In this document: positions 12,956 through 55,873 of the stretch, piece by piece
How positions within the stretch are numbered: the first letter of the stretch is position 1
How the letters are laid out: each line of letters opens with the position of its first letter
DNA from: an uncultured Candidatus Saccharibacteria bacterium
GTDB lineage: Bacteria; Patescibacteriota; Minisyncoccia; Phycocordibacterales; PALSA-1337
DNA length: 64,000 nucleotides
Reading direction: 5' to 3'
Assembly (NCBI GenBank): GCA_964543075.1
Contig: CAZIVT010000002.1
Coordinates: 3,089-67,088 of the forward strand
Program-made: the position numbers and the translations under genes
The notes under the pieces: model-generated
What the model was told of the DNA's origin: nothing
Databases searched by the model: none
Seen by the model: the letters and a program-made list of their open reading frames with translations, nothing else

Positions 12956-13579
12956 ATGCTTGCGGCCTTTGTGACCGGCGTCATCATCGCGTTCCTCACC
13001 TCGATACCGGTCGGGCCGGTCGGCCTCCTCTGCATATCGCGATCGATCTCCCACGGCAAGTATTCCGGGATGGTGGTCGGCCTCGGTGCCGCCGTGGTCG
13101 ACGCCTTCTTCGCCGCTGTAGCGGCTTTCAGCCTGACAGGCATCGTCCATTTCATCAAGGACTACTCCATCGCGTTCCATATCGTCAGCTTCTGCGCGCT
13201 CATCGGTGTCGCTATCTACTTCCTCCGAGCCAAGACCCATGTCGCGCACGAGCATCGCCGCGAGGTGTCGCACAGCGAGAATTTCTTCGTCTCCGCTTTC
13301 CTCAATATCACCAACCCATTCGCCATCTTCGGTTTCTTCACGCTCTTCGCACTAGCTGGCTTGGGTCGAGGCATCGGCCACGGGGAAGCGATCGCCGCGG
13401 TCGGAGGAGTCTTCGTCGGGGCGTGTCTCTGGTGGTATCTCCTAGCGGCTGTCTCCGACCGTTTCGAGTCCAAAGTCGACGATCGCATGATGACCGCGCT
13501 CAACCGCGCCTTCGGCATCCTGATCATCGCCTTCGTCGTTTTCCTCGCGTTCAAGTTCGTGCTGTCGCTTTTGCACTAG
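12956..13579 (+). CDS. LysE/RhtB-family amino-acid exporter
   Basis: Start moved to MLAAFVTGVIIAFLTSIPVGPVGLLCI (typical LysE N-terminus). About six TM segments. TATACT sits 7 nt upstream of the ATG. Confidence 0.8.
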   Translation: MLAAFVTGVIIAFLTSIPVGPVGLLCISRSISHGKYSGMVVGLGAAVVDAFFAAVAAFSLTGIVHFIKDYSIAFHIVSFCALIGVAIYFLRAKTHVAHEHRREVSHSENFFVSAFLNITNPFAIFGFFTLFALAGLGRGIGHGEAIAAVGGVFVGACLWWYLLAAVSDRFESKVDDRMMTALNRAFGILIIAFVVFLAFKFVLSLLH

Positions 13580-13635
13580 GCCGATGGCACACGACCTATT
13601 TTGAAATAGGGCATACATACGCTACTATTAGAGCC

Positions 13636-14835
13636 ATGAAGACCGTCACTGACAAAGCGCGCATCGAAGAACTCTTGGCGCGCGGCATGCTCGTCGAAGC
13701 ATATCCATCCAAAGCCGAGCTCATGGAGCGGCTCCTCTCAGGCGATCGTATCCGGATCTACTACGGCCTCGATCCGACGCATACCGCCATCCATCTCGGT
13801 CATGCCAAGAACCTTATATTCCTCGAAGAGCTCCGTCAGCTCGGCCATGAGGTCATCGTCCTCTTCGGCGATTTCACCGCCACGATCGGCGATCCGACCG
13901 ACAAGGCCGCCGCTCGTTCTCAGCTCACTGTCGAACAGGTCAAAGAGAACATGAAGACGTGGATCGAGCAGATCACGCCGCTCGTCGATTTCGATGACGC
14001 GGATAATCCCGCGCGCGTCGAGCGCAACTCCTCATGGCTCTCCAAACTCTCATTCGCCGACGTTCTCGATCTCTCTTCCAATTTCACTGTCCAGCAGATG
14101 CTCGAGCGTGATATGTTCGAGAAGCGCATGGAGACCGGTGCGCCTATCCACCTGCATGAGTTCATGTATCCGCTGATGCAGGGATACGACAGCGTGGCGA
14201 TGGATGTGGATGCTGAGCTATGTGGAACCGACCAGATCTTCAACGCTCTAGCCGGACGCACGCTCCTCAAGCGCTACAAGAACAAGGACAAGCTCATCAT
14301 CGCTCTCAACCTGATCGCTAACCCTGCAACCGGCGAGCTGATGTCCAAGTCCAACGGCACCGGCGTGTTCATCGACCAGTCGCCGGCCGATCTATTCGGT
14401 TCGATCATGGCGCTCCCTGATCCGATGATCGAGCCGCTCTTCACGCACTGCACCCGTATCCCGATGTCAGACAAGGAGGGGTTCATGGCCGCCGGGCCGA
14501 GGAAGGCCAAGGCCGCTGTGGCGCTCGATATCGTCAAGCGTCTCCATGGCGAGTCAGCGGCGCTGGCGGCAGAGCAGGCATTCGAGAATACCTTCGCCAA
14601 AGGCGGCGTGCCGGATGATGTGCAGGAGGTCTCCCTGGGAGACGGCGAGCATCTCTCTGATGCGCTCGTCAAAGCAGGCGTTATATCTTCCAAGGCCGAG
14701 TGGCGCCGGCTCATCGATGGCGGCGGCATCCGTACCGAGGACGACGAGAAGATATCCGACCCTCATTTCAAACCGGTCAAGACTGTAGTCCTCAGGGTTG
14801 GCAAACGGAGGTTTGTAAGAATAGTACCGCGCTAG
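13636..14835 (+). CDS. tyrS: Tyrosine--tRNA ligase
   Basis: HIGH motif (DPTHTAIHLGH), KMSKS variant (GELMSKSNG), TyrRS-like core and a C-terminal S4-like domain (LSDALVKAGVISSKAEWRRLIDGGGI). The upstream 234 codons of the long ORF are an Arg-rich alternative frame of lysE. Confidence 0.92.
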   Translation: MKTVTDKARIEELLARGMLVEAYPSKAELMERLLSGDRIRIYYGLDPTHTAIHLGHAKNLIFLEELRQLGHEVIVLFGDFTATIGDPTDKAAARSQLTVEQVKENMKTWIEQITPLVDFDDADNPARVERNSSWLSKLSFADVLDLSSNFTVQQMLERDMFEKRMETGAPIHLHEFMYPLMQGYDSVAMDVDAELCGTDQIFNALAGRTLLKRYKNKDKLIIALNLIANPATGELMSKSNGTGVFIDQSPADLFGSIMALPDPMIEPLFTHCTRIPMSDKEGFMAAGPRKAKAAVALDIVKRLHGESAALAAEQAFENTFAKGGVPDDVQEVSLGDGEHLSDALVKAGVISSKAEWRRLIDGGGIRTEDDEKISDPHFKPVKTVVLRVGKRRFVRIVPR

Positions 14836-14922
14836 TTCAATAGTCAAATAGTACCTAGTCCAATAGTCTCTGCTACCAAATCCAGGGGCAGGGACTATTC
14901 GACTATTGAACTATTTGACTGC
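14836..14922. repeat. Intergenic word-repeat hairpin element H1 (CTACC..GCAG core family)
   Basis: Left arm GTTCAATAGTCAAATAGT... pairs with right arm ...GACTATTGAACTATTTGACT. Central part is TCTCTGCTACCAAATCCAGGGGCAGGG. It lies between the convergent tyrS and comFC genes. Confidence 0.65.
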
Positions 14923-15618
14923 TCAATGCGCCAACGATAATCCTCTGACGTCGGTGAACCCCGCGCGTTTCAATGTCTCGATCGCTTCGTGCATCGTGCT
15001 TCCAGTGGTGATGACGTCATCTATGACGATCAATCGCCGCTTGGTGAGCTCCGGCTCCGCCTCAGTGAGCTTCTCCAGCGTCTTTTCATCTATTGCGAAT
15101 ATCCCTTTTGCATCTTCGACTCGGTGTTTGCGATCTTTCATGGTTTGTCGATCCGCATGATGTGTGCGTATCAGCAGGTTTCTGTCGAATACAAACCGAG
15201 CAGGATCTCTCTCTTGTGCCCATCGCGCTATCTCATCCATCAGTAGCTCACACTGGTTGTACCCGCGCTCGCGTCTCCGCCGCGATGTTATCGGCATAGG
15301 TAGGACGAGTATCGGACAGACGCCGGACGCGGCATCTGTAGATATCTCCTCGAGATCGGAAAATAGCGCATACCCGCCGATTTCGACAGCTTGCGTCGAG
15401 TGTTTGTATTTGATGTTCCAGATGAGCTTGGAGACACGCTCATCCTTGTAGGCGAAGATAGATCGGGTGTCAGGGAGATCCACCGCGAGGCCAGAATAGT
15501 TAGGTGCCGGAGGTAGCTTCTCCAAGGCCTCGCGTGGTGACAGCGAAAAGATCTCCTTTTCAGCAGGAGAAAGAGGGAAGAGCGCGTCGAGGATGGTTTG
15601 GTAGAGTATCTTGAGCAT
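14923..15618 (-). CDS. comFC: ComF-family phosphoribosyltransferase-like competence protein
   Basis: PRTase motif RRLIVIDDVITTGSTMHEAIETLKRAG and an N-terminal ComF-like region. Confidence 0.8.
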   Translation of the reverse strand: MLKILYQTILDALFPLSPAEKEIFSLSPREALEKLPPAPNYSGLAVDLPDTRSIFAYKDERVSKLIWNIKYKHSTQAVEIGGYALFSDLEEISTDAASGVCPILVLPMPITSRRRRERGYNQCELLMDEIARWAQERDPARFVFDRNLLIRTHHADRQTMKDRKHRVEDAKGIFAIDEKTLEKLTEAEPELTKRRLIVIDDVITTGSTMHEAIETLKRAGFTDVRGLSLAH

Positions 15619-15639
15619 GAGTTCGGCATACTATGATAC

Positions 15640-15770
15640 CTCCACAGACGCCAATTGGCCTAATCTCTGATTAACCTAGTTGGCCTAAGAAACGCTTGTG
15701 AGACTATCTAGTATAGGTAGTCAGGAGGTTTTAGGACAATTAGGAATTAGAATAATTAGGGTAATTTCGG
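15640..15770. repeat. Intergenic word-repeat hairpin element H5 (CTAATT-word family)
   Basis: CCAATTGGCCTAATCTCTGATTAACCTAGTTGGCCTAAG ... TTTTAGGACAATTAGGAATTAGAATAATTAGGGTAATT. The arms are related to those of the element at 35728..35814. Confidence 0.6.
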
Positions 15771-15783
15771 TATACTATATCCT

Positions 15784-16881
15784 ATGGCCCTCTTTTCCGG
15801 ACTTTTCAAAAAGGACTCCAGTGTGCTCGGCATAGACATCGGATCTTCCGCCATCAAGGTCATCCAGATCAAGAAGAAGCGCGGTCGCGCAGTTCTGGAG
15901 ACCTATGGTGAGCTGGCGCTCGGTCCGTACGCTGGCATCGAAGTCGGCCGCGCGGCGAGCGTGCAGGCTGACAAGATCGTCGAAGCCATCAAGGACATCC
16001 TTCGTGAGTCAAAGACCACGACCGGGCTCTGCGGCGTCGCTTTGCCGCTCTCTTCGAGCTTGATCTCATTCATCTCCGTGCCGCCTGTCCCAGAAAAGCA
16101 GATGAGCGAGGTCATCTCTCTCGAAGCCCGCAAATACATCCCAGTTCCTCTCAATGAAGTCCTGCTCGATTGGTCAGTGATCCCCAAGGAGGACTCCTAT
16201 GTCAGCGAAGACGAATCCGCCAAGCAGGAGAAGCGGGGGAGCGACGTCCTCGTGGTCGCTATCCACAATCAGTACATCAATGACTACCAGTCCATCATCG
16301 GTGGGAGCGGTCTCCAGCCGAGCTTCTACGAGATAGAGATCTTCAGTTCCATACGCGCAGTCGTCGACCAGGGTATCCAGACAGTGATGATCATCGATAT
16401 GGGAGCGCGGTCGACCAAGCTCTATATCGTCGAGCGCGGCATCTTGCGCGCGTCTCATATCATCAACAAGGGCAGCCAAGACATCACGCTGGCTCTCTCC
16501 AAGGCCATGAGCATCACAGTGACCGATGCTGAGACCATGAAGCGCACCTATGGCCTCAAAGGAGGCCCAGAATACAAAGAGCTGACCGAGATCATCACCG
16601 TCAATCTCGATTATATCTTCTATGAGGCCAACGCGACGCTCCTCAACTACCAGAAAAAGTTCAATAAGAACGTCAGTAAAGTCATCCTGACCGGAGGGGG
16701 GGTGCTCCTCAAGGGTTTCACCGATTTGGCGCGCATCGGCTTTCAGACTGAGGTAGTCTACGCGGACCCATTCAGCAAGCTCGAGACGCCAGCCTTCTTG
16801 GCTGACGAGTTCGCTCAGGCTGGGCCGGAGTTCGCGGTGGCTATCGGAGTCGCGCTCCGCAGACTCGGAGAGATGGAGTGA
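15784..16881 (+). CDS. pilM: Type IV pilus assembly protein PilM (actin-like ATPase fold)
   Basis: N-terminus VLGIDIGSSAIKVIQIKK, length and position match PilM. TATACT-N7-ATG lies upstream. Confidence 0.85.
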   Translation: MALFSGLFKKDSSVLGIDIGSSAIKVIQIKKKRGRAVLETYGELALGPYAGIEVGRAASVQADKIVEAIKDILRESKTTTGLCGVALPLSSSLISFISVPPVPEKQMSEVISLEARKYIPVPLNEVLLDWSVIPKEDSYVSEDESAKQEKRGSDVLVVAIHNQYINDYQSIIGGSGLQPSFYEIEIFSSIRAVVDQGIQTVMIIDMGARSTKLYIVERGILRASHIINKGSQDITLALSKAMSITVTDAETMKRTYGLKGGPEYKELTEIITVNLDYIFYEANATLLNYQKKFNKNVSKVILTGGGVLLKGFTDLARIGFQTEVVYADPFSKLETPAFLADEFAQAGPEFAVAIGVALRRLGEME

Positions 16882-16961
16882 CGAGTAGTCAGTCCTTCGT
16901 TATACACACCTCACACTGGCTCTACTCTGGTATAATCATATAGAAACCATCTTACGGAGAT

Positions 16962-17615
16962 ATGGAGACCAAATTCCAGACATCATTCATACCGAAGAAA
17001 CCTCTCACGCTTGCCGGAAGCGGCTTGGGAGGGATCTCTGTCCCTCAGCAGCCCAAGCGACGAGGGACGAGCGTCTTCATGTCCATCGCGGTAATCATCT
17101 TCATCATCTCTCTCGGCGCGGTTGCAGGAGTGCACTTCTGGAAGTCTGTCCTCATCTCGGCTCAGGATAGCTACAAGGTCCAGTTGGCCCAGCGGGAAAA
17201 GCAGTTCAACCTGGCACTCATCGAAGAGCTCAAGCGTCAAGATGTCAAGATCAGCTTGGCTGACCAATTGCTCCGCAATCACCTCGCCATATCCAATATC
17301 TTCGGCATCATCGGCAGCTTCACCATTGAGAACGTCAGGTATCTGTCGCTCGACTTGTCCGCTCCCGCGAACAGCACAGAAGACGTCAAGATCTCGATGA
17401 AAGGGCAGGGATCCAACTTGAGCGCTATCGCGTTCCAGTCGAAAGTCCTCGCGACGCTCGAAGAATACGGCCTCCGTACGATCGTCAGGAATCCCATCCT
17501 GTCCGATCCAGTCCTGGACGCCTCGGGCGCGGTATCGTTTGGATTCACTGCTACGATCAACTCAGGAGCGCTCTCATACGAAAAGAGCGTGACTTCGAGC
17601 GAGTCCGCACCATAG
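16962..17615 (+). CDS. PilN-like bitopic pilus assembly protein
   Basis: Single TM (SVFMSIAVIIFIISLGAVAGV) followed by a coiled-coil and a periplasmic-type domain, directly after pilM. The GGAG 4 nt upstream is a rare SD-like motif in this window. Confidence 0.5.
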   Translation: METKFQTSFIPKKPLTLAGSGLGGISVPQQPKRRGTSVFMSIAVIIFIISLGAVAGVHFWKSVLISAQDSYKVQLAQREKQFNLALIEELKRQDVKISLADQLLRNHLAISNIFGIIGSFTIENVRYLSLDLSAPANSTEDVKISMKGQGSNLSAIAFQSKVLATLEEYGLRTIVRNPILSDPVLDASGAVSFGFTATINSGALSYEKSVTSSESAP

Positions 17616-17622
17616 CAATCCC

Positions 17623-18195
17623 ATGAACAAGAACATCACCGCACTCATCCTGATCATATTGGCCGCTGGCGTGTACTTCACGTATACGCAGGGCAAGCTC
17701 GATGAGCTCAAGTCCATCCGAGAGGTCAACAGCGAGTACTCATCAGCTATCGCCAATGCCGATCAGCTCATCAAGGATCGCGATCGTGTCCTCACTCAGT
17801 ACAATGACATCGCCGCTGATGATCGCGACAGGCTCGACAAGATGATCCCTGACACAGTCGACAACATACGTCTGATCATCGACCTCAATAGCGTCGCTTT
17901 GGATCATGGATTCTCTCTCCGCAACATCAAAGCCGCGGCATCGAGCGACAAGGAGGGAGCTCCGCCGCGCCAGGTACAGTCTGGTTCGCGCGACATAGTC
18001 ATAGCCAATCCTACCCTCGACACGGTGACGGTCACGTTCAGCGTGACCGCGCCATACCAGCAGTTCATCGAGTTCATGCGTTCTCTGGAAGCCAACTTGC
18101 GCGTGATGGATCTGACGCATCTGACCATAGCGGCCAACAGCTCAGGGACGTATGACTTTGGCGTCGAGTTCAAGACCTATTGGCTCCGCGAATAA
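17623..18195 (+). CDS. PilO-like bitopic pilus assembly protein
   Basis: N-terminal TM, coiled-coil (GKLDELKSIREVNSEY...) and a C-terminal alpha/beta domain. Position after pilM/pilN-like. Confidence 0.5.
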   Translation: MNKNITALILIILAAGVYFTYTQGKLDELKSIREVNSEYSSAIANADQLIKDRDRVLTQYNDIAADDRDRLDKMIPDTVDNIRLIIDLNSVALDHGFSLRNIKAAASSDKEGAPPRQVQSGSRDIVIANPTLDTVTVTFSVTAPYQQFIEFMRSLEANLRVMDLTHLTIAANSSGTYDFGVEFKTYWLRE

Positions 18196-18199
18196 CATC

Positions 18200-18532
18200 A
18201 TGAAGAACAAAACCTCATCAAAGAAGACCCTCGTGAGCTCGGTTATCATCATCGTCGCTGTGGCGATCGCGTATTTCTTCTATATGGGCAACAAGGCCCC
18301 CTCCGGACAGTCTCTACTCGAGACGCAGGTGACGCCTGAGGCCAACGCGGCCAGCTCGCGCATACTGGCTCTGCTCAATCAGATCAGATCGCTCAAGATA
18401 GACACGGAGATATTCGATGATCCGGTATATCAGACGCTCATCGATTATTCGGTCGCCATACCAGATGTCCCTGTCGGCAGGCTCAATCCGTTCGCTCCTA
18501 TACCAGGAGTGCCGATAGAAGGGTCAAATTGA
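18200..18532 (+). CDS. Small membrane-anchored protein of the pilus operon
   Basis: Start moved to MKNKTSSKKTLVSSVIIIVAVAIAYFF. No recognisable family. Confidence 0.4.
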   Translation: MKNKTSSKKTLVSSVIIIVAVAIAYFFYMGNKAPSGQSLLETQVTPEANAASSRILALLNQIRSLKIDTEIFDDPVYQTLIDYSVAIPDVPVGRLNPFAPIPGVPIEGSN

Positions 18533-18616
18533 ACGTTGAAAATTGAACGTTGAAGATTAATCCCTCGGGACTAATAGCCGGAATTTTCAATTTTCAATTT
18601 TCAATTTTCAATGCAA
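18527..18616. repeat. Intergenic word-repeat hairpin element H8
   Basis: Left arm is (AATTGAACGTTGAA)x2 and right arm is (ATTTTCA)x4. They are partly complementary (TTGAAAATTGAA versus TTCAATTTTCAA). Confidence 0.6.
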
Positions 18617-18617
18617 C

Positions 18618-20360
18618 ATGTCTGTCCTCGATATCCTACTCCAGAAGAATATCATCACCAAAGATGACGTCCGCGACATCCGCAAGGCGACATCCGCAGG
18701 CAGTCCGCTCGAGGACGCGCTGATCGCCCGTGGGGTCAAACCAGAAGACGTCATCGCGGCCCGCGGTGAATTCCTCAATATGCCCGTCCGTGCGGTAGCC
18801 GAGCAATCGGTCCCTTTTGAAGTGCTCGAGTACATCCCCGAGGAGTCGGCCGTCCACTACAAGTTCGCGCCGCTCGGTCTCGTCGACGGGACGCTCGAAG
18901 TCGGCATCGTCGATCCTGACAACATGGAGGCACGCGACGCGCTGACCTTCTTGGTGGCGAAAAAGAACATCCCATACAAGCTATTCCTCATCACTATCGA
19001 TGACTTCAAGAAAGTGATCGAGATGTACAAAGGCATCACCGGAGAGGTGTCCAAAGCGCTCTCGGAGCTCGAGAGCGAGCTCTCTGTCGATATCTCTGAT
19101 GGCATCAAGAAAGAGGACCTCGCGTCAGAGAAAGGTGGCGGCAAAGGCTCGAGCAAAGCCGAGGATGAGACGCTGATCATCGAGGATGCTCCTGTGGTCA
19201 AGATCGTCGCTACTATCGTCCGGTATGCCGTCGAAGGGGAGGCCTCAGACGTCCACATCGAGCATATGCGCGACAAGATCCGCGTGCGCTTCCGCGTCGA
19301 TGGTGTGCTCAATACGTCGCTCATCTTGCCGCCGCAGGTGCACTCGGCTGTCGTGGCTCGCATCAAAGTCCTCTCCAACATGCGCCTCGACGAGAAGCGC
19401 AAGCCTCAGGACGGACGCTTCTCGGCACGCATAGACGGACGTCGTGTCGATTTTCGTGTCTCTACATTCCCTTCGTATTATGGCGAGAAAGTCGAGATGC
19501 GTATCCTCGACCAAGCAAAGGGTATCCGTACTCTCGACGATATGGGCATGTCCGACAAGAATCTCTCTATGCTCCGTGAGGCGATCAACAAGCCATACGG
19601 CATGATCCTCATCACGGGCCCGACCGGTTCTGGAAAATCCACTACGCTCTACTCTATCCTCGGCGAGGTCGACCGTGAGAGCTACAACGTCCTATCGCTC
19701 GAAGATCCGGTCGAATATCAGATGGAAGGCGTCAGCCAATCGCAGGTTCGTCCGGAGATCGGATATGATTTCAGCTCTGGATTGCGCACGACGCTCCGTC
19801 AGGACCCCGATATCATCATGGTCGGTGAGATCCGCGACAAAGAGACCGCCCAGCTGGCGGTGCAGGCGGCTCTGACCGGTCACTTGGTCTTCTCGACTCT
19901 GCACACCAATGACGCCGCCGGCGTCATACCGCGTCTCATCGATATGGGTGTCGACCCGTATCTGATCGCGCCGACGCTCATCCTAGCAGTCGCGCAACGC
20001 CTCGTAGGACTCTTGCCAAAGGGCGGGGGAGAGCCCATGGCGGTCGATGGCAGTCTCAAAGCGATGATAGACAAGCAGTTCGCTGATCTTCCTGAACAAT
20101 ACAGGCAGGACATCCCATTCACAGATACTGTCAACAAGATCAAACCTACTCCCGAGTGTCCCAAAGGGACGAGGGGCCGTATGGCAGTCTTCGAGATGTT
20201 CACTATGGACAAGGATATCGAGAAAGTCATCCTGACCAATCCGACCGAGACAGAGATCTTCAAGATCGCGCGCGCAAAAGGCATGACTACCCTCAAGGAA
20301 GATGCCATCATCAAGGCGTTCGGCAAAGTGATACCGATAGAGGAGGTCAATAAGCTGTGA
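18618..20360 (+). CDS. pilB: Type IV pilus assembly ATPase PilB (GspE family)
   Basis: T2SSE N-domain, Walker A GPTGSGKST, Asp box, Walker B and His box (LVFSTLHTN). Confidence 0.92.
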   Translation: MSVLDILLQKNIITKDDVRDIRKATSAGSPLEDALIARGVKPEDVIAARGEFLNMPVRAVAEQSVPFEVLEYIPEESAVHYKFAPLGLVDGTLEVGIVDPDNMEARDALTFLVAKKNIPYKLFLITIDDFKKVIEMYKGITGEVSKALSELESELSVDISDGIKKEDLASEKGGGKGSSKAEDETLIIEDAPVVKIVATIVRYAVEGEASDVHIEHMRDKIRVRFRVDGVLNTSLILPPQVHSAVVARIKVLSNMRLDEKRKPQDGRFSARIDGRRVDFRVSTFPSYYGEKVEMRILDQAKGIRTLDDMGMSDKNLSMLREAINKPYGMILITGPTGSGKSTTLYSILGEVDRESYNVLSLEDPVEYQMEGVSQSQVRPEIGYDFSSGLRTTLRQDPDIIMVGEIRDKETAQLAVQAALTGHLVFSTLHTNDAAGVIPRLIDMGVDPYLIAPTLILAVAQRLVGLLPKGGGEPMAVDGSLKAMIDKQFADLPEQYRQDIPFTDTVNKIKPTPECPKGTRGRMAVFEMFTMDKDIEKVILTNPTETEIFKIARAKGMTTLKEDAIIKAFGKVIPIEEVNKL

Positions 20361-20373
20361 TATAATAATACCC

Positions 20374-20799
20374 ATGACTGAACAAACCGTAACCACTGCT
20401 TCCTCTGCGCCGGCTTCGGATGCAAAGAAAGTCCTCCTCGTCGATGACGACAAGTTCCTGCTCGATATGTATGCCATCAAGTTCAGCAAGGCTGGCTACG
20501 AAGTCAAGACGGCAGATGCCACGGACGCGGCCCTCAAGATGCTCCGCGACGGATATATCCCCGATGTGATGCTCGCTGACATCGTCATGCCTGGTCTCGA
20601 TGGTCTCGAGCTGGTCGCAAGTGTCAAGAAGGAGAACTTGATCCCCCAAGCCAAGGTCATCATGTTGACCAATCAGGGCTCTTCCGATGACGTCTCCCGA
20701 GCCAAGAAGCTCAACGTGGATGGCTATATCGTCAAAGCGACGACCATACCGTCGGAGGTGCTCGGTGAAGTGGAGAAGATTATCAGCAGTAAACCGTAA
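20374..20799 (+). CDS. Stand-alone response-regulator receiver protein
   Basis: VLLVDDD...DVMLADIVMPGLDG...VIMLTNQG...GYIVKA are CheY-like receiver residues. It lies between pilB and pilT. Confidence 0.85.
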   Translation: MTEQTVTTASSAPASDAKKVLLVDDDKFLLDMYAIKFSKAGYEVKTADATDAALKMLRDGYIPDVMLADIVMPGLDGLELVASVKKENLIPQAKVIMLTNQGSSDDVSRAKKLNVDGYIVKATTIPSEVLGEVEKIISSKP

Positions 20800-20810
20800 A
20801 GTCAGCCGCG

Positions 20811-20880
20811 TGGTACCTAGTTAGTTCTCGCTACTAGATGCAGAAACTATGTAACTAGGTGCTATGCAACTAAGTAACTA
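20811..20880. repeat. Intergenic word-repeat hairpin element H2 (TCGCTACTAGAT..GCAGAAACTATGTAACT family)
   Basis: The core at 20828..20873 is about 90 percent identical by eye to 33190..33240. Arms GTACCTAGTTAG / CTAACTAGGTGC pair. Confidence 0.7.
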
Positions 20881-20886
20881 CCGTAT

Positions 20887-21945
20887 ATGGACTATAAACA
20901 AGAAATCCAAGAACTCGTCGACCTGGTCTTCAAGGAAGGCGCATCAGACCTGCATCTCTCGACTGGCCGCACGCCGATCATCCGCGTCTCCAGCAATCTG
21001 ATACCGCTCGTCAAGAAACCCACGCTATCTGACGCAGATATGAAGGGCTTCCTCAAGGTATTCCTCAACGAAGAGAGCATCGAGATCTTCCACAGAGAGA
21101 AAGATGTCGACTTTTCATACGGCCTAGACCAGGCGCGTTTCCGTGGCAATGCCTACTATCGTCAAGGCGCTATCTCCATCGCGCTTCGTCTCATCCCCAA
21201 GGCCATACGGACGCTTTCGGAGCTCAACCTGCCTCCTATCCTCGAGACATTCACGAGGAAGCCCCAGGGATTCTTCCTCGTGGTAGGACCGATCGGCCAA
21301 GGCAAGACCACTACGCTGGCTACGCTGGTCGAGATCATCAATCAGACGAGGTCAGAGCACATCATGACCATCGAGGATCCCATCGAGTATCTTTTTGATT
21401 CCAAGAAGTCCATCATCGATCAGCGCGAGGTGCGTTTCGATACGCCTGATTTCCAGACAGCTCTGGTGGCCATGTTCCGTCAGGATATCGATGTCTGTAT
21501 GGTGGGCGAGATGCGAGACAATACCACTGTCGCTACCGCCGTGACCGCCGCTGAGACAGGTCACCTGATCTTCTCGACACTGCATACCAACAATGCCGCC
21601 CAGACGATCAACCGCATCATCGACTCGTTCCCGCCGAGCCAGCAGGATCAGATCCGTATCCAGCTGGCAGGATCCCTGTCAGGCATATTCTCTCAGCGCC
21701 TCATCCCGCGCATCTCTGGCGGACAGATCCCGGCGTATGAGCTTCTCATCAACAACACCGCCGTCGCCAACCTGATTCGCGAGAAGCGCATCCATGAGAT
21801 CAATACCGTCATCGAGACGAGCTCACAGGAGGGGATGATCGACATGAACCGCTCGCTCGCCGAGCTCGCGCGATCCGGAGAGATCACCGTCGAGAACGCG
21901 TATCTCAATTCGCTCAATCCCAAGACGCTCGAACGCATGATGTGA
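20887..21945 (+). CDS. pilT: Twitching-motility retraction ATPase PilT
   Basis: Walker A GPIGQGKTT, and IFSTLHTNNAAQTINRIID is typical of PilT. 352 aa. Confidence 0.92.
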   Translation: MDYKQEIQELVDLVFKEGASDLHLSTGRTPIIRVSSNLIPLVKKPTLSDADMKGFLKVFLNEESIEIFHREKDVDFSYGLDQARFRGNAYYRQGAISIALRLIPKAIRTLSELNLPPILETFTRKPQGFFLVVGPIGQGKTTTLATLVEIINQTRSEHIMTIEDPIEYLFDSKKSIIDQREVRFDTPDFQTALVAMFRQDIDVCMVGEMRDNTTVATAVTAAETGHLIFSTLHTNNAAQTINRIIDSFPPSQQDQIRIQLAGSLSGIFSQRLIPRISGGQIPAYELLINNTAVANLIREKRIHEINTVIETSSQEGMIDMNRSLAELARSGEITVENAYLNSLNPKTLERMM

Positions 21946-21946
21946 T

Positions 21947-22037
21947 GTCAGTCAGATAGTCCATCGGTACATCGTCCAGTAGTCCTCGCTACCGGAATCA
22001 GCAGTAGAGATTATTCGACTGGGAACTATTGAACTGT
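21947..22037. repeat. Intergenic word-repeat hairpin element H3
   Basis: TCCTCGCTACCGGAATCAGCAGTAGAGATTATTCGACTGGGAACTATTGAAC is related to the H1 core (GCTACC..AATC.AG..GCAG..ATTCGACT..GAACTATT). Confidence 0.6.
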
Positions 22038-22065
22038 GATACATGCTCGCGCTATAATTACTCTC

Positions 22066-23277
22066 ATGCTTTTCAACTATGAAGCCATAGACGCGACCGG
22101 AGGCAAGAAGAACGGCTCTATAGATGCCATCAATCTAGACATCGCCATCGCTTCGCTCCAGCGACGCGGGCTCGTACTCACCAATATCAAAGAGGCCGAT
22201 GCCCCGAGCGGCATCCTCTCCGCCAATATCTCCTGGTTCGACCGTGTCTCAGTCAAGGACGTTGTCATCCTGTCCCGCCAGCTGGCGACTCTCTTTGAGG
22301 CGCAGGTGTCGGCGCTCCGCATCTTCCGCTTGCTCGGATCAGAGTCTGAAAATCACGTGCTAGCCAAGAAGCTCACCGAGATCGCCGATGATCTCCAAGC
22401 GGGAAGCTCGATATCCACAGCCCTCTCCAAACATCCCAAGGTATTCAGCGATTTCTATGTCAGCATGGTCAAAGCAGGTGAGGAATCAGGCAAGCTCGAC
22501 GACACCTTCCAGTATCTGGCCGACTATCTCGATCGCACCTATGAGCTCACGTCTCGCGTCCGCGGAGCGCTCATCTATCCGGCGTTCGTGGTCGTGACCT
22601 TCGTCGTGGTCATGATCCTCATGTTCACCATGGTCATCCCCAAGATCAGTGGCATCCTCGTCGATTCGGGCGTGGAGATACCGGTCTACACGCGCGTGAT
22701 CCTCGGACTCAGCAATTTCCTCGTAGAATACGGCTTCATCATCCTCGGCGTCGTCCTCATCGGCGGCTTTTTCCTCATCAGATTCATCCGCACGCCGGTG
22801 GGCAAGGCCGCGTTCGATCGATTCAAGCTCAATATCCCATATGTCAGCGGACTCTATCGCAAGCTCTACCTCTCGCGCATGGCCGACAACATGGCGACCA
22901 TGCTCGGTTCAGGTATCCCGATGGTCCGCGCGCTCGAGCTCACGTCCAATGTCATCAACAACAGCATCTACCAAGGCATCCTGACGGGGTCAGTGGAGAT
23001 GGTCAAGGGTGGTAAGACGCTCTCCGAGTCGCTCTCCGTCGATCCTGACGCTATCCCCGGTATCATGACGCAGATGATGAAGGTGGGTGAGGAGTCCGGC
23101 GAGCTCGGCAGTATCCTCAAGACCGTGGCCAAGTTCTACAGCCGCGAAGTGACCACAGCCGTCGACTCGCTCGTCTCGCTCATCGAGCCGCTCATGATCG
23201 TGCTCCTCGGCGGGGGAGTCGCCGTCCTTCTGGCGTCGGTGCTCATCCCGATCTACAACATCGCCAGCGCGCAGTAG
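22066..23277 (+). CDS. pilC: Type IV pilus platform protein PilC (GspF family)
   Basis: Start moved to MLFNYEAIDATGGKK (TATAAT-N7-ATG). Two GspF repeats and three TM segments. Confidence 0.9.
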   Translation: MLFNYEAIDATGGKKNGSIDAINLDIAIASLQRRGLVLTNIKEADAPSGILSANISWFDRVSVKDVVILSRQLATLFEAQVSALRIFRLLGSESENHVLAKKLTEIADDLQAGSSISTALSKHPKVFSDFYVSMVKAGEESGKLDDTFQYLADYLDRTYELTSRVRGALIYPAFVVVTFVVVMILMFTMVIPKISGILVDSGVEIPVYTRVILGLSNFLVEYGFIILGVVLIGGFFLIRFIRTPVGKAAFDRFKLNIPYVSGLYRKLYLSRMADNMATMLGSGIPMVRALELTSNVINNSIYQGILTGSVEMVKGGKTLSESLSVDPDAIPGIMTQMMKVGEESGELGSILKTVAKFYSREVTTAVDSLVSLIEPLMIVLLGGGVAVLLASVLIPIYNIASAQ

Positions 23278-23281
23278 CAGG

Positions 23282-23325
23282 AACACGCAGGGTAGACCTG
23301 CGTACGCAGGTCTACCCTGCGTGTT
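23282..23325. repeat. REP element copy 1 (44-bp perfect palindrome)
   Basis: AACACGCAGGGTAGACCTGCGTACGCAGGTCTACCCTGCGTGTT, 4 nt after the pilC stop. Confidence 0.9.
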
Positions 23326-28605: not shown

Positions 28606-30879
<2,274 letters not shown>

Positions 30880-31573: not shown

Positions 31574-31609
31574 CGATACGAATACTACGAATAATGCGAA
31601 TAACGACGA

Positions 31610-33163
31610 ATGCCAATAGACTTACAAAATCTGACGATCGTGAAAGCGCATGAAGCGCTCAAGAAGGGCGAATTCACTTCGGTCGAATTGACGCAGGCGT
31701 ATCTGGATCAAATTGCCGCACGCAACGGCGACATCTACGCATATCTGGAGGTCTTCGAAGACGCGATAGATCAGGCCAAGGAGGCGGATAAGAAAATACA
31801 AGGATTGATCTCGCCAACGGCGGGGTTGACCCCGCCTGTGGCGGGGTTGAAAGAAGGAAAGATTGAAAGATTGAAAGATTCGGATACAGCCGCGGATTTC
31901 CCGATGTTGCTGGGCATCCCGTGCGCGATCAAAGATAATATCCTCATCAAGGGCCACATCGCCAGTTCAGCGTCCAAGATATTGGAGCGATATCATGCGA
32001 CCTACGATGCCACGGTCATCCGCAAGCTCAAGGAGGCCGGCGCGGTCTTCCTCGGACGCACCAATATGGACGAATTCGCTATGGGCGGCTCGACCGAGAA
32101 CTCCGCCTATGGTCCGACTAGGAATCCGCACGATCTCGAACGCGTTCCAGGCGGGACCTCGGGAGGATCGGCAGCTGTCGTAGCGGCGGACATGGCATTG
32201 TTTGCGCTCGGCTCGGATACAGGAGGATCGATCAGACAACCTTCGAGCTTTTGTGGTGTGGTAGGGATCAAACCGACATACGGCAATGTATCACGATATG
32301 GTCTGATGGCGGCTGTTTCGTCATTTGACCAGATTGGTCCGATAGTCAAGACGGTCGAAGATGCCGAAATAGTATTTGATGTGATCAAAGGGAAGGATGA
32401 GAAGGATGGAACAAGTCAAAATTCTCCCGCCTCCGCTCCACTCCGCGAAGCTTCGGCGGGCAAGCAATTCCCAATTCCCAATTCCCAATTCCAACACAGG
32501 CAAGATCGATTGCGTATAGGTATTCCGAAACACTTCTTGAAAGGAGATGGCATCGATCCGGCGGTCGTGAAGGCGTTCGAATCTTCGGTGGAAGCGCTTA
32601 AAGCTAAGGGATATGAGGTGATCGATATCGAGTTACCGAATATCTCGTATTCATTACCTGCATATTATATTCTGAACTTTGCGGAAATATCGTCCAACAT
32701 GGCGCGCTATGATGGTATGAGATTCGGTCTCCATGTAGATGGCGCGGACGGCATCGGCGACTATTTCGAGACGCGCAAGGCGGGCTTAGGCAAGGAGGTC
32801 ATCCGCCGCATCTTGCTCGGCACCTATGTACTCTCGTCAGGATACTACGACGCCTATTACAATCGCGCCAATGCCGTGCGCCGGATGATCACCGAGGACT
32901 TCACCAAAGCATTTCAGTCAGTCGACGTCATCGCCACGCCGACCACGCCATCTCCTGCGTTCAAACTCGGCGAGAAGACGAGCGATCCGGTGGCGATGTA
33001 TCTGGAAGATATATTCACCGTGACGGCAAACCTGACGGGCATGCCGGCCATCTCCGTGCCGATGAAGACCGACGGATTGCCCGTAGGCATCCAGTTCACC
33101 GCGCCACAGGGAGGGGAGAGCGCTCTATTTGAGATCGGAAAAGAGACGGAGATAGTCGAGTAG
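31610..33163 (+). CDS. gatA: Glutamyl/aspartyl-tRNA amidotransferase subunit A with two extra in-frame segments
   Basis: Amidase signature GGSSGGSAA-like GGTSGGSAAVVAA, GSDTGGSIRQP and KDNI. Confidence 0.95.
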   Translation: MPIDLQNLTIVKAHEALKKGEFTSVELTQAYLDQIAARNGDIYAYLEVFEDAIDQAKEADKKIQGLISPTAGLTPPVAGLKEGKIERLKDSDTAADFPMLLGIPCAIKDNILIKGHIASSASKILERYHATYDATVIRKLKEAGAVFLGRTNMDEFAMGGSTENSAYGPTRNPHDLERVPGGTSGGSAAVVAADMALFALGSDTGGSIRQPSSFCGVVGIKPTYGNVSRYGLMAAVSSFDQIGPIVKTVEDAEIVFDVIKGKDEKDGTSQNSPASAPLREASAGKQFPIPNSQFQHRQDRLRIGIPKHFLKGDGIDPAVVKAFESSVEALKAKGYEVIDIELPNISYSLPAYYILNFAEISSNMARYDGMRFGLHVDGADGIGDYFETRKAGLGKEVIRRILLGTYVLSSGYYDAYYNRANAVRRMITEDFTKAFQSVDVIATPTTPSPAFKLGEKTSDPVAMYLEDIFTVTANLTGMPAISVPMKTDGLPVGIQFTAPQGGESALFEIGKETEIVE

Positions 33164-33250
33164 TACTTAGCTACTTGGGTACATAGTTTTCGCTACTAGA
33201 TCTAGATGCAGAAACTATGTAACTGGGTACTATGTAACTATGTAACTATT
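33164..33250. repeat. Intergenic word-repeat hairpin element H4 (same family as H2)
   Basis: TCGCTACTAGATCTAGATGCAGAAACTATGTAACTGGGTACTATGTAACTA. It differs from H2 mainly by a CTAGAT duplication. Confidence 0.7.
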
Positions 33251-33267
33251 TTATATAATATACCCAT

Positions 33268-33882
33268 ATGCCTCCTTCGGAGTTCACAGACCCGTCTCCC
33301 CATATATCGATCGGCCCACCACAGGTCGACATCATGTCGTCTCTAGATACGGCGTATCAAGCTTTTCTCGCGTGGTTGCCGGCGCTGACGTCGATCCTCA
33401 AGTCAGCGTTCGGTGTCTTGGTGGGCCTCTCATTCCCGATATCGCTCTTTTTCCTGATCGTCATCATCTACTGCGTGGAACAGCTCAAGTATATCCGTAA
33501 GAGGGAGGAGCTCATATACGACACGCGGACCGAACCCGCGTATCAGGAACAAGAGGGAGGAGATCCAAAGCTCGCGCATCAGTGGTCGAGCGTGATACGG
33601 CACATCGAGTCTCCCAACGAGAACGATTGGAAGCAGGCGATCCTTGAGGCAGATATGATCCTCGGTGACATCCTGACTGCCATGGGCTATAGGGGAGAGA
33701 GCATCGGGGAGAAGCTCAAGCGGGTCAGTCTCGGCGATATGAAGTCTCTCGACGATGCCTGGGAGGCGCACAAAGTCCGCAATGACATCGCGCATCGACC
33801 TGGTTTCTCCATCAACCAGTATGATGCCCGACAGGTCATCGCTCGATACCGCAAGGTCTTCGAGGAGTTCTACTACATTTGA
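33268..33882 (+). CDS. Hypothetical membrane protein
   Basis: 204 aa with two N-terminal TM segments and a soluble helical C-domain. TATAAT-N8-ATG. Confidence 0.5.
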   Translation: MPPSEFTDPSPHISIGPPQVDIMSSLDTAYQAFLAWLPALTSILKSAFGVLVGLSFPISLFFLIVIIYCVEQLKYIRKREELIYDTRTEPAYQEQEGGDPKLAHQWSSVIRHIESPNENDWKQAILEADMILGDILTAMGYRGESIGEKLKRVSLGDMKSLDDAWEAHKVRNDIAHRPGFSINQYDARQVIARYRKVFEEFYYI

Positions 33883-33885
33883 TAC

Positions 33886-33988
33886 AGATATACGAATGCA
33901 TGCAAATCTACGAATAACTACGAATAGCGCAATCGCCATTCGCAGTTATTCGCATCATTCGAATAATTCGTATATTCGTATCGTGCGT
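33886..33988. repeat. Intergenic word-repeat hairpin element H9 (CGAATA-word family)
   Basis: Long imperfect inverted repeat ...CTACGAATAACTACGAATAGCGC AATC GCCATTCGCAGTTATTCGCATC.... A single-arm relative lies at 31574..31609. Confidence 0.6.
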
Positions 33989-35727: not shown

Positions 35728-35814
35728 AATTACCCTAATTTCTAATTGATCTAATTTCTAAACAATGACCAATTGTAGGTTACTCAGAAATTAGGCCAAT
35801 TAGGTCAATTCTTG
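35728..35814. repeat. Intergenic word-repeat hairpin element H6 (CTAATT-word family)
   Basis: CTAATTGATCTAATTTCTA pairs with CAGAAATTAGGCCAATTAG. The left arm GAATTACCCTAATTTCTAATT matches the reverse complement of the H5 right arm. Confidence 0.65.
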
Positions 35815-35827
35815 TATAATGACCTCC

Positions 35828-36510: not shown

Positions 36511-36598
36511 AACTCAAAACTCAAAGCTCAAAAGTCAAAAATAGACCAAATCGAAAAATCAGCGTTAGTTTTGCGTTTTGATTTTTGAGCTTTGAGTT
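36511..36598. repeat. Intergenic word-repeat hairpin element H7 (AAACTC/TCAAAA-word family)
   Basis: Left arm AACTCAAAGCTCAAAAGTCAAAA (36518..36540) pairs with right arm GTTTTGATTTTTGAGCTTTGAGTT (36575..36598). Confidence 0.7.
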
Positions 36599-53995: not shown

Positions 53996-55873
53996 ATGCG
54001 ACGGAAGAAGCGCCCGAATGGCCGGAATAGCGTGAAGAAAAGTTCAGCGAAAAGCCATTCGCGGGGCGCTTCAAAGCCCTCTCGTCCGAGACATGCTCAC
54101 AAGTACATCTTCGTCATCGGCGGCGTGATGTCCGGCGTCGGCAAGGGTATCGCCACCTCTTCCATAGGCACGCTGCTCGCCGCCAAGGGCTGGACGGTCA
54201 ATCTGGCCAAGGTCGACCCCTATCTCAATGTCGATGCTGGCACCATGAATCCCACTGAGCATGGGGAAGTCTTCGTGCTCGATAGCGGCCTGGAGACCGA
54301 TCAGGACATGGGGAACTATGAGCGCTTCCTCAACCGCGACCTCACGGCCGATGACTATATCACGAGCGGCATGGTCTATCGCCACGTCATCGAGAAGGAG
54401 CGCGCGCTCGGCTACGGCGGCAAGTGCGTCGAGGCCATCCCGCATATCCGCGACGAGATCGTGCGACGCTTCGAGCATAGCGCCAAGGTCAACAAGTCCG
54501 ACATCTCGATCATCGAGATCGGCGGCACCGTCGGCGACTATCAGAACATCATGTTCATCGAAGCGGCTCGTGTGCTCAAGATCCGCCATCCGCAGGATGT
54601 CATCTTCATCATGGTGTCGTATCTGCCGGTGCCGGGCGCGCTCGGCGAGATGAAGACGAGGCCGACCCAGAACGCCGTGCACCAGCTGGCCTCATACGGA
54701 GTGACCGCCGATATCATCATCGCGCGCGCCAGCATCCCGCTCGACGAGCGCCGCAAGGAGAAGATCGCTACCGCTTGCAACTTGCCGGCCACACGGGTGG
54801 TTTCTGCTCCGGATATCAGGAGCATCTATGACGTCCCGGGCAATTTCGAGCATGACCGTCTCGCCGATACTGTGCTCGAAGCGCTCCATGTGCCCGCGGG
54901 CGAGCGATCGGGTCCGCTCATCGATGACCCACTCATCTCCATGAAGTCGTGGAAGAAGATGGCCGCCGGCGTCGGCCGACCGCTCGATGAGGGCGAGCGT
55001 CCGCTCAATATCGCTATCGTCGGCAAATATTTCAATACGGGGGATTTCGTCCTCACGGATGCATATTTATCGGTGCTCGAAGCGATCAAATTCTCTGGTC
55101 ATGAGGTCAAGGTCAAGCCGATCATACATACGATCAATGCGAGAGACTTCGAAGAGAAAACTCAAAACTCAAAACTCAAAAGTCAAAAATCCGGTGCAGA
55201 TTCGGACCCTGGTCTTTTTCCGTATGCCCAACTCGACGAGATGGACGGCGTGATCGTGCCCGGCGGGTTCGGCGAGAGCGGTATCGAGGGCAAGCTCAAC
55301 GTCATCAGGTATTGCCGCGAGAATGGCATCCCGTACTTCGGCCTCTGCTACGGCATGCAGCTCATGACCATCGAGTACGCGCGCAATGTCCTCGGTCTCT
55401 CCGGCGCGCAGACGGCCGAGATCGATCCGGCCGCGCCGCATCTCATCATCGATATCATGCCCGATCAGAAGAAGAAGCTCCAGGACGCCGACTATGGCGG
55501 CTCGATGCGCCTCGGTCTCTATCCGGCCAAATTGCTCAAAGGATCGATCGCTCAAGAGGCTTATTCGCAGTTCGCCGGCAAGCCTCTGCCCAAACCGACG
55601 ACCATGATCAAGGAGCGCCACCGCCATCGCTACGAGGTCAATCCCAAATATGTCGAGCGGCTAGAAAAAGGCGGCCTCGTTTTTTCTGGAAAATCACCCG
55701 ACGGTCGTCTATGCGAGATCGCAGAATTGCCGCGAGATCGACATCCCTTTTTCCTCGGTACGCAGTTCCATCCGGAGTTCCTGGCGCGTCCGCTCCTGCC
55801 GCATCCGCTCTTCACCGAGTTCCTCAGGGCGGCAAAATGGAGGAAAAGATCTCAAATAGAGAAAGGGAATTAA
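53996..55873 (+). CDS. pyrG: CTP synthase with a basic N-terminal extension and one extra in-frame segment
   Basis: KYIFVIGGVMSGVGKG, a GATase domain with GLCYGMQ and HRHRYEVN. Start set at the ATG 6 nt after TATACT. Confidence 0.93.
   Translation: MRRKKRPNGRNSVKKSSAKSHSRGASKPSRPRHAHKYIFVIGGVMSGVGKGIATSSIGTLLAAKGWTVNLAKVDPYLNVDAGTMNPTEHGEVFVLDSGLETDQDMGNYERFLNRDLTADDYITSGMVYRHVIEKERALGYGGKCVEAIPHIRDEIVRRFEHSAKVNKSDISIIEIGGTVGDYQNIMFIEAARVLKIRHPQDVIFIMVSYLPVPGALGEMKTRPTQNAVHQLASYGVTADIIIARASIPLDERRKEKIATACNLPATRVVSAPDIRSIYDVPGNFEHDRLADTVLEALHVPAGERSGPLIDDPLISMKSWKKMAAGVGRPLDEGERPLNIAIVGKYFNTGDFVLTDAYLSVLEAIKFSGHEVKVKPIIHTINARDFEEKTQNSKLKSQKSGADSDPGLFPYAQLDEMDGVIVPGGFGESGIEGKLNVIRYCRENGIPYFGLCYGMQLMTIEYARNVLGLSGAQTAEIDPAAPHLIIDIMPDQKKKLQDADYGGSMRLGLYPAKLLKGSIAQEAYSQFAGKPLPKPTTMIKERHRHRYEVNPKYVERLEKGGLVFSGKSPDGRLCEIAELPRDRHPFFLGTQFHPEFLARPLLPHPLFTEFLRAAKWRKRSQIEKGN

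Follow-up and report, generated by a model that had tools for sequence, protein, structure and literature searches.

Hairpin-forming heptameric repeats in intergenic spacers of a Patescibacteria genome and their probable origin in place

Several intergenic spacers in the window analysed here (the whole 64-kb stretch of contig CAZIVT010000002.1, from a Patescibacteria metagenome-assembled genome) are built of short AT-rich words repeated in tandem. In three of them, named H7, H8 and H9, the words on one side face their complement on the other. The first-pass annotation of this DNA had noticed that the words differ from spacer to spacer while the hairpin design stays constant. How do different sequences arrive at one architecture, and are such hairpins copied from site to site or made where they stand? 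We consider it rather probable (roughly 0.6) that H7, H8 and H9 are hairpin-forming heptameric long simple-sequence repeats (LSSRs) which arose in place and which most likely form RNA stem-loops. They are not a new kind of element; they are a fast-evolving hairpin form of the known heptamer repeats.

Architecture and enrichment of the word hairpins

Tandem arrays were called with Tandem Repeats Finder (TRF), and fold energies were tested against 200 dinucleotide shuffles. The parts of the three hairpins, and a single arm between gatC and gatA, lie as follows.

18526..18558 (+), H7 left arm: (AAATTGAACGTTGA)x2.4, period 14, 94% matches; TTGAACG and TTGAAAA words alternate
18559..18581 (+), H7 loop: 23 nt, G+C about half
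18582..18612 (+), H7 right arm: (AATTTTC)x4.4, 100% matches
36511..36543 (+), H8 left arm: AACTCAA words (AAAACTC, AAAGCTC, AAAAGTC); TRF array 36511-36540, x4.3
36566..36598 (+), H8 right arm: AGTTTTG words; TRF array 36567-36598, x4.6
33881..33929 (+), H9 left arm: ACGAATA-type words; shares bases with the TGA (33880-33882) that ends a 204-aa gene
33934..33982 (+), H9 right arm: ATTCGTATA words; a gap of about 10 nt separates it from the tRNA-Met 3' end
31574..31611 (+), gatC-gatA single arm: TACGAATAC words, filling the spacer; TRF array 31577-31611, x3.8

The words of H7 do face their complement, as had been claimed, with TRF arrays on both sides. Its paired arms (18528-18558 and 18582-18612) are 31 nt long and 84% complementary, and it folds at -30.3 kcal/mol (z -5.3). 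The right arm stops 5 nt short of the pilB ATG (18618). The left arm contains the TGA (18530-18532) that ends the upstream 126-aa gene of the pilus operon; the C-terminus of this protein is shortened and altered relative to four relatives, and the H7 array replaces its last codons and stop. H8 begins 2 nt past the ftsE stop (36506-36508) and finishes 8 nt ahead of the ftsX ATG (36607). Its arms are 33 nt long and 82% complementary, with a 23-nt core at 96% (22/23) that comes close to the 22 of 24 paired bases first reported, and the fold is -31.4 kcal/mol (z -6.8). In H9 the CGAATA words likewise meet their complement, in 49-nt arms at 73%. Here the 204-aa gene and the tRNA-Met gene (33993-34065, minus strand) converge across the hairpin, which folds at -37.7 kcal/mol on the plus strand (z -6.7) and better, at -52.8 kcal/mol (z -9.1), on the minus strand. 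The single arm of H9-type words noticed between gatC and gatA is real; this array faces no inverted partner and does not fold (z +0.5). The first-pass annotation had also placed the hairpins between a stop codon and the next start. That describes H8. It does not describe H9, which runs from a stop (33880-33882) to the 3' end of a convergent tRNA gene, and the upstream stop at H7 lies within the left arm.

The pattern was found to be far above shuffled controls. The window holds 14 arrays with a period of 7-10 and at least 2.8 copies, compared to 0.68 +/- 0.75 (maximum 3) in 40 locally shuffled windows, an excess of about 20-fold. Ten of the 14 are intergenic, i.e. in 7.6% of the window. Period 7 accounts for 8 of the 14, and the copy number ranges from 2.8 to 5.3 (TRF, period 7-10). 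The fold z-scores of 29 spacers of 60-230 nt had a median of -3.0, with nine at z <= -4, versus a median of +0.5 and none at or below -4 for length-matched coding controls (Mann-Whitney p = 4e-8). The folds, the spacer z-scores and the array census thus agree with the earlier view that different words share one architecture. The automatic count of facing pairs in the census was 2, which is an undercount, and a strict custom array finder missed most arrays. Raw TRF array density over all loci was not discriminating, high-GC genomes being rich in period-6 and period-9 coding repeats.

The same design was seen in at least six further spacers, and arrays of similar words lie in frame within genes.

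14833..14922 (unstranded), convergent spacer between tyrS and a phosphoribosyltransferase gene: AATAGTCA versus GACTATTC words; -40.9 kcal/mol, z -8.3
15650..15783 (+), divergent spacer upstream of pilM: CCTAAT and AATTAGG words; the right part repeats the ftsE-type promoter block
20800..20886 (+), word hairpin between the response-regulator gene and pilT: AACTATGT and AACTAGGT words; homologous to 33164-33267
21946..22035 (+), degenerate word hairpin between pilT and pilC: the last word gives TTGAAC, 18 nt before TATAAT
33164..33267 (+), word hairpin between gatA and the 204-aa gene: AACTATGT x4.8, then TATAAT
35728..35818 (+), word hairpin between prfB and ftsE: right arm is the ftsE promoter block (AATTAGNNN repeats and TTGTATAAT), left arm its inverted copy
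55157..55190 (+), in-frame PyrG array: (AAAACTC)x4.6 in a hypervariable loop
29391..29463 (+), in-frame LigA insertion: AAAACTC words broken by two GC mini-hairpins (CCCGCC..GGCGGG)
30416..30459 (+), in-frame LigA loop array: (AAATCCG)x5-6; the same site in relative L085 has AAAGTCG words
31805..31880 (+), in-frame GatA insertion: two GC mini-hairpins, then (TTGAAAGA)x4
32465..32492 (+), in-frame GatA array: (CAATTCC)x4

The in-gene words hold a stop codon in no frame; several intergenic words do hold stops.

Orthologous spacers, copies and recurrence of the words

We compared syntenic regions from eleven related contigs. The PilB proteins of the nearest relatives are 85-87% identical to that of the window (the best match outside the genome is 87%) and their FtsX proteins 75-81% (best 81%), FtsX being 318 aa long in all of them. 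The GTDB genomes nearest by GatA (L001-L004, 61-65% identity, 65% being the best GatA match in GTDB) were too distant; a few arrays were found there, in L001 only.

H7, H8 and H9 were absent from the orthologous spacers of all relatives compared. The spacer from the 126-aa gene to pilB measures 85 nt with its hairpin in the window, 12 nt in L084 and 18 nt in L085; in L086 it has 100 nt and no words, and in L088 60 nt, in which ATTCGTA words make up a single arm. The ftsE-ftsX spacer is 98 nt with the hairpin in the window, 2-3 nt in L092 and L216, and 18-19 nt in L090 and L215, and in L091, L093 and L214 it is occupied by perfect non-word palindromes of 130-140 nt followed by a -10 box. From the 204-aa gene to tRNA-Met there are about 110 nt with the hairpin in the window and about 8-10 nt in L092 and L216. 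The inverted symmetry of the words, which comparison of orthologous spacers was meant to reveal, is therefore not kept at these three sites: there are a few bases, unrelated sequence or non-word palindromes instead. A conserved element at these three sites is refuted by this lack of conservation.

Other slots kept their arrays as the words changed. The spacer upstream of ftsE carries an AT-rich word hairpin in six of eight genomes (window, L090, L092, L093, L214 and L216). Its words are common only to L214 and L216; those of L093 differ from both despite 84-86% identical FtsX. The two genomes without the hairpin, L091 and L215, have an extra gene there and then a canonical terminator with a GC stem and T7. 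The gatC-gatA spacer of L093 contains a single 38-nt array of other A-rich heptamers. In LigA, the same three loops are enlarged by insertions in the window and in L085; L086 lacks them. Of these insertions, two in the window and all three in L085 are encoded by heptamer words, which are not the same in the two genomes. The loop of the PyrG array is hypervariable in all four genomes compared. A generative mechanism rather than simple copying had been proposed for the spacers. In-place generation fits the ftsE slot, the gatC-gatA spacer of L093 and the LigA loops; "rather than copying" was too strong, since copies of arms and hairpins exist.

In the same intercistronic slots, the relatives also have perfect, non-repetitive palindromes of 26-41 bp, each followed by a -10 box (L084:13214-13340, L085:13218-13345, L090:3430-3550, L093:9859-9975, L214:2553-2660 and L214:3642-3780). 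Between pilT and pilC, the orthologous palindromes of L084 and L085 have different sequences, and both retain near-perfect pairing.

The copies are of several kinds. The H8 left arm matches the in-frame pyrG array (55159-55190) at 31 of 32 bases (97%) and has the variant tail CTCAAAAGTCAAAAAT in common with it. Across 47 nt, the hairpin at 20800-20886 is 91% identical to that at 33164-33267. A 31-nt GC mini-hairpin (AAATTTATCCCGCCTTGGCGGGACAGGCAAA) is identical at 29405-29435, in the ligA frame, and at 34749-34779, 3' of tRNA-Thr; related copies lie at 12007, 12038, 24008, 31810 and 31831. In ligA this mini-hairpin breaks up an AAAACTC heptamer array, which recalls the small dispersed repeats that have reportedly been found inside cyanobacterial heptamer arrays. 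As judged from the sequences, the origin is generative, plus some copying.

At the prfB-ftsE hairpin the origin of the second arm is directly legible. The window, L090, L214 and L216 have in common a conserved promoter block, in which AATTAGNNN repeats precede TTGTATAAT, about 8 nt 5' of the ftsE ATG.

Window 35784-35827: block upstream of ftsE
Window 15735-15783: block upstream of pilM
L090:1705-1747, L214:1830-1871, L216:5275-5316: blocks of the relatives

The right arm of this hairpin is the conserved block and the left arm its reverse complement; local sequence has been duplicated in inverted orientation, and no foreign DNA was inserted. The copy upstream of pilM occurs in the window only and not in the relatives, suggesting that the promoter was copied to a new gene. 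The variant word AAAGCTC of H8 is mirrored in both arms (22/23), and the arm periods of H7 differ, 14 on the left and 7 on the right. The arms are true inverted copies, yet each is homogenised separately.

The words themselves are not special. The H7 word also occurs in a distant Patescibacteria genome (L011, where arrays start pilin-like open reading frames (ORFs)), in L001, and in metagenome contigs (at least 120, with 24-68% GC). Perfect (TTGAAAA)4 ... (TTTTCAA)4 hairpins with unrelated GC-rich loops are found in L104, L133, L155 and L158 (57-68% GC). A vocabulary shared across phyla was considered and rejected, composition-matched control heptamers being equally common: in viral contigs there were 21 matches to the H7 word, and 30 and 33 to two such heptamers. 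The count was 7 for a hexamer and 8 for an octamer of equal total length and composition, 3-4-fold below the heptamers. AT-rich heptamers in general expand readily. Since there are few AT-rich heptamer words to choose from, recurrence across genomes is expected.

In other metagenome contigs, arrays of (ATTTTCA)n were also seen to adjoin conserved 16S/23S rRNA gene sequence, probably inside rRNA gene insertions (L094:416-550, L169:972-1106), and to lie in frame in FolD, TsaD, TpiA and the prepilin peptidase PilD (L120, L128, L144, L162 and L167), where they give FSIFNFQ-type peptides. Two Acidobacteria metagenome-assembled genomes, found through gatA, have the same heptamer-word hairpins in spacers (L046:1155-1250 and 2070-2215; L039:4280-4360 and 9445-9540). 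One orthologous spacer of theirs has GACAGAA words in one genome and AAACGGA/TTTTACC in the other.

Origin, role and competing explanations

In the origin that we propose, most of which the comparisons show, replication slippage amplifies AT-rich words of 7-10 nt in tandem, each arm being homogenised alone. The two-armed form appears when one arm is copied inverted from the other arm or from neighbouring sequence, after which pairing is partly preserved. Quasipalindrome correction is an established mutational mechanism, and such hairpin-templated copying may be the simplest way to keep the arms matched. Arrays are gained, reworded and lost within the divergence of genomes with 75-87% identical proteins. 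They persist only where they do little harm, i.e. in spacers, at gene 3' ends and, if the word is stop-free, in protein surface loops, and some arrays or whole hairpins are also copied to second sites. Transcription of a hairpin once in place would give the upstream gene's RNA a stem-loop at its 3' end; read-through could thereby be attenuated, the 3' end shielded, or the upstream gene insulated from the promoter that follows. The hairpins most likely work as stem-loops in the transcript, to modest effect, and any single site could do without one. None of H7, H8 and H9 is essential, because close relatives do without them.

The positions of the hairpins are consistent with such a role. They stand after stop codons, between convergent genes, or just 5' of the -10 box of the next gene; those between convergent genes include H9 and 14833-14922, and also L104 and L147 among the metagenome matches. 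The predicted stems are strong, and in L091 and L215 a canonical terminator takes the equivalent position before ftsE, behind the extra gene. Differences between arms that allow G.U pairs favour the sense strand in the window (15 vs 4), and in H9 they favour the tRNA strand (6 vs 1). Fold energies of sense and antisense strands gave a weak preference for the sense strand, which was non-significant.

Several observations weigh against this interpretation. When the relatives are included, the sense-strand bias of G.U-capable differences falls to 21 vs 11 (p = 0.11), and transcription-linked C-to-T mutation could yield such a bias without selection. The stems are AT-rich and have no 3' U-tract, and fail the usual definition of a terminator. 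The genes on either side of the hairpin at 15650-15783 diverge, which leaves it without a 3' end to act on. Slippage alone accounts for the arrays and not for the facing pairs, and inverted copying was demonstrated for one hairpin only. In addition, the second-site copies show that some dispersal mechanism also exists.

This last point bears on the explanation that would place the hairpins among miniature non-autonomous mobile elements such as MITEs, REPINs or Correia elements, with one family per word set and the arrays in genes as half elements. We regard it as unlikely. Presence and absence vary among close relatives, with short "empty" sites, and three of the copies described above would be expected of mobile elements: the homologous pair 20800-20886 and 33164-33267 (91% over 47 nt), the match of the H8 left arm to the pyrG array (97% over 32 nt), and the 31-nt GC mini-hairpin identical at two sites. 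Other small mobile palindromes are present as well, namely REP-like doublets (23.3-28.6 kb) and the 80-nt core shared by L091 and L085. No second full-length H7, H8 or H9 was found in the 64-kb window or the fetched relatives, however, and the H7 junction, compared with four relatives, shows no target-site duplication. The H7-word hairpins of other contigs have unrelated loops, arrays stay at orthologous sites while their words change, and the one right arm that is conserved promoter sequence is local and not foreign DNA. A weak Y1_Tnp match was found in the relative L088 (the window ORFs were partly scanned).

The small palindromes just mentioned are a separate set. Perfect REP/REPIN-like doublets of CCGCAGGGTAGACCTGCGT and ACGCAGGTCTACCCTGCGG cluster round the pilin genes, and a related core, GCGTCTACCCTACGC, lies at about 14520 in L088.

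REP-like doublets: 23282-23325, 24045-24082, 24819-24856, 27526-27565
Half copies: 24517-24537, 24670-24690, 28565-28591

The 80-nt core of the ftsE-ftsX palindrome of L091 (4324-4403) is 98.75% identical to L085:983-1062 in the recG region, which suggests a small mobile element common to both genomes.

A second alternative, to which we give a rather small chance, treats the word hairpins of these small genomes with leaderless promoters as a structure-only intergenic terminator or insulator signal. The stem would be selected, slippage would rewrite the words, and quasipalindrome copying would re-match the arms. Structure-only selection would explain why the ftsE slot keeps a hairpin in six of eight genomes while the words change.

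It is doubtful, to a slightly greater degree, that the words and not the hairpin are functional, as sites bound by RNA polymerase alpha (at an UP element), by a transcription factor or by an RNA-binding protein resembling Csp, S1 or CsrA. Such a function would suit the AATTAGNNN repeats directly 5' of the ftsE -10 box, which are conserved in four genomes and recur 5' of pilM. It would also suit right arms that abut the next start or -10 box, as in H7 (5 nt from the ATG) and 21946-22035 (TTGAAC as -35 hexamer), and TAACTGA repeats 5' of start codons have been proposed as regulator sites in Beggiatoaceae (PMC4679880). Because the words vary across spacers and across orthologous spacers, no single binder fits. 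H7, H8 and H9 are missing from close relatives, similar arrays form part of protein reading frames and, in other contigs, of rRNA genes, and binding leaves the inverted partner unexplained.

Templated synthesis, in which a telomerase-like, reverse-transcriptase-based or primase-based activity adds words to both ends of a break, had been offered by the first-pass annotation as one possible generator and is very improbable. The perfect facing (TTGAAAA)4/(TTTTCAA)4 arrays with unrelated loops do have the pattern of two extended 3' ends. The H7 word is not privileged, however, two composition-matched heptamers being as common or commoner (30 and 33 matches vs 21). Many different words occur in one genome, the separately homogenised arms differ in period and variant words, single arms are common, and no candidate enzyme was identified. 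Chance or assembly artefact has a negligible probability: the source is a metagenome-assembled genome and the short-read graph assemblies L081 and L082 both begin at 18583, inside the H7 right arm, but these two independent Logan assemblies match the window without mismatch over 4.5-4.7 kb (18583-23312 and 18583-23044, taking in the last 30 nt of that arm and two neighbouring hairpins), the fold z-scores are -5 to -9, 14 arrays stand against 0.68 in shuffles, and the same architecture recurs in many unrelated contigs.

Known repeat systems and the genomic setting

The arrays of the window agree with the description of LSSRs. They are head-to-tail units within the 5-11-nt range (typically 7) in numbers beyond chance (14 vs 0.68), and they are dispersed and mainly intergenic (10/14). 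Length and sequence vary at the same locus, as seen in the LigA loops, the ftsE-upstream spacer of eight genomes and the gatC-gatA spacer of L093. Period 7 is favoured both in the window (8/14) and in viral contigs (21, 30 and 33 vs 7 and 8).

Strict STRR (short tandemly repeated repetitive) elements have the units CCCCAGT, TTGGTCA and CAACAGT and belong to the heterocystous cyanobacteria Calothrix, Anabaena and Nostoc. Membership of the window arrays in this strict class was rejected on host, which is Patescibacteria/Parcubacteria by nearest names, and on the AT-rich words. The window words are many per genome and not three named families, periods of 8-10 nt also occur, and most intergenic arrays come as facing pairs. 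Few-copy 7-nt tandem units, dispersed and mostly intergenic, are common to the window and to STRR or heptameric LSSRs, as these have been described (Mazel 1990, Mrazek 2007 via PMC4692102, PMC4679880). The heptamer excess in viral contigs matches a published one, which has been put down to how long a stretch of DNA the polymerase holds (Mrazek 2007 via PMC4692102, PMC4679880). In cyanobacteria, 7-bp repeats able to form a hairpin lie between the co-transcribed hupS and hupL; STRR function there is described as unresolved, with transcript stability or translational coupling proposed (PMC2670836). STRR have reportedly been found inside a structural RNA gene as well, that of RNase P RNA (Vioque 1997, reference in PMC4046671).

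The GGGAATC repeats of Xanthomonas mostly have 4 units, are sometimes inverted pairs and vary among related species at the same loci (PMC4692102). Like the window arrays, they and the GGGGAYT repeats of Nostoc have about 4 units and are mostly intergenic, some forming stem-loop-capable inverted pairs, and between the same genes of related species their length and sequence differ (PMC4692102). These repeats are G-rich, have been studied as quadruplex formers and provide one dominant word per genome, whereas the window arrays are AT-rich, cannot form quadruplexes and use many words. The TAACTGA repeats of Beggiatoaceae, cyanobacteria and Bacteroidetes resemble the window in being heptamer arrays a few bases 5' of starts where Shine-Dalgarno motifs are rare, with a few in ORFs and the same word in unrelated phyla (PMC4679880). 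They consist of one word in 169 direct sets versus one inverted set (PMC4679880); the window arrays are as a rule inverted pairs, with varying words. REP, BIME and REPIN sequences share with the window hairpins their position as extragenic palindromes in intercistronic or convergent spacers, the formation of transcript hairpins and variation among strains, but REPs are conserved sequences of 20-40 nt copied by the RAYT transposase and not tandem words (PMC3116915). The separate CCGCAGGGTAGACCTGCGT family of the window fits the REP description better than the word hairpins do.

Rho-independent terminators have the same positions as the word hairpins, i.e. after a stop, between convergent genes and before the next promoter, and a canonical terminator stands just 5' of ftsE, after the extra gene, in L091 and L215. 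The window stems have 23-33 bp, about 30% GC and no unpaired U-tract after the stem. By the structural definition of a Rho-independent terminator, a short GC-rich stem with a U run directly after it, the hairpins were rejected; the stems are followed by GCAAC in H7 and GTCATTCT in H8. A scan of 14000-24000 for promoter and terminator consensus found nothing at H7, and the only strong promoter-like match there uses the last word of the pilT-pilC hairpin. The Rickettsia palindromic elements of Ogata et al. 2000 are said to be conserved mobile palindromes of 100-150 bp, tolerated in frame in housekeeping proteins. The ligA, gatA and pyrG arrays are like them in this tolerance, and differ in being short single-arm heptamer arrays at hypervariable loops. 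A TIGR array is a long array of 36-nt units near a Tas gene (PMC12045711); CRISPR arrays have repeat-spacer units of 25-40 nt beside a Cas gene. TIGR and CRISPR arrays were rejected, the window units being 7-10 nt in about 4 copies beside pilB, ftsE/ftsX, gatA and tRNA genes.

Heptamer hairpin repeats, so far known from cyanobacteria and Xanthomonas, extend to the Candidate Phyla Radiation (CPR) and, incidentally, to Acidobacteria. An operon slot that keeps its hairpin as the words are replaced offers a tractable comparative system, and the housekeeping proteins LigA, GatA and PyrG gain loop insertions by the same process. In CPR genomes the arrays break short-read assemblies, inflate spacer and protein lengths, and could pass mistakenly for mobile elements or regulatory RNAs. 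If it is true that the hairpins terminate or insulate, the question of heptamer-hairpin function, raised since 1990, would become directly addressable.

The window has 53% G+C and is gene-dense, with the plus strand predominating. Its closest proteins and genomes carry the names Patescibacteria, Parcubacteria, Paceibacterota or Candidatus Taylorbacteria.

Type IV pilus operon: pilM, two genes at the pilN/pilO positions, the 126-aa gene, pilB, a response-regulator gene, pilT, pilC
Other genes: ligA; gatC and gatA; a tRNA cluster; prfB, ftsE and ftsX; pyrG

A weak PilO match was obtained only for the second of the two genes at the pilN/pilO positions; the identities of gatC and gatA were confirmed by Pfam. 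An Rfam scan of the whole window gave seven tRNAs at gathering score and no RNA family besides tRNA, the word hairpins being unmatched. Two spacers between tRNA genes, 34401-34484 and 34561-34656, are strongly structured (z -6.7 and -6.3) due to GC-rich palindromes such as GAGCTTCGCAGCGCAAGCA / TGCTTGCCCTGCGAAGCTC.

The ORF at 44332-48162 (1276 aa), a large surface-type protein, contains a 771-bp perfect direct repeat (44742-45512 and 45879-46649) and further matching segments, a recent internal duplication. The tyrS ORF (12934-14835) has 633 aa compared to 399-417 aa in the relatives, with a Pfam match from residue 271; its listed TTG start is probably over-extended, or an N-terminal addition is present. 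TATAAT-like -10 boxes stand 6-10 nt 5' of start codons in many spacers of the window and relatives (e.g. window 26810-26824, 33245-33267 and 62660-62679; L084:13340-13362), and Shine-Dalgarno motifs are not visible in these spacers. This suggests that leaderless mRNAs are the norm in the clade. At 7437-7477, a canonical-looking bidirectional terminator lies between convergent genes, with a GC core bordered by AAACAAAC and GTTTGTTT words (z -6.2); it is possibly an intermediate between ordinary terminators and word hairpins.

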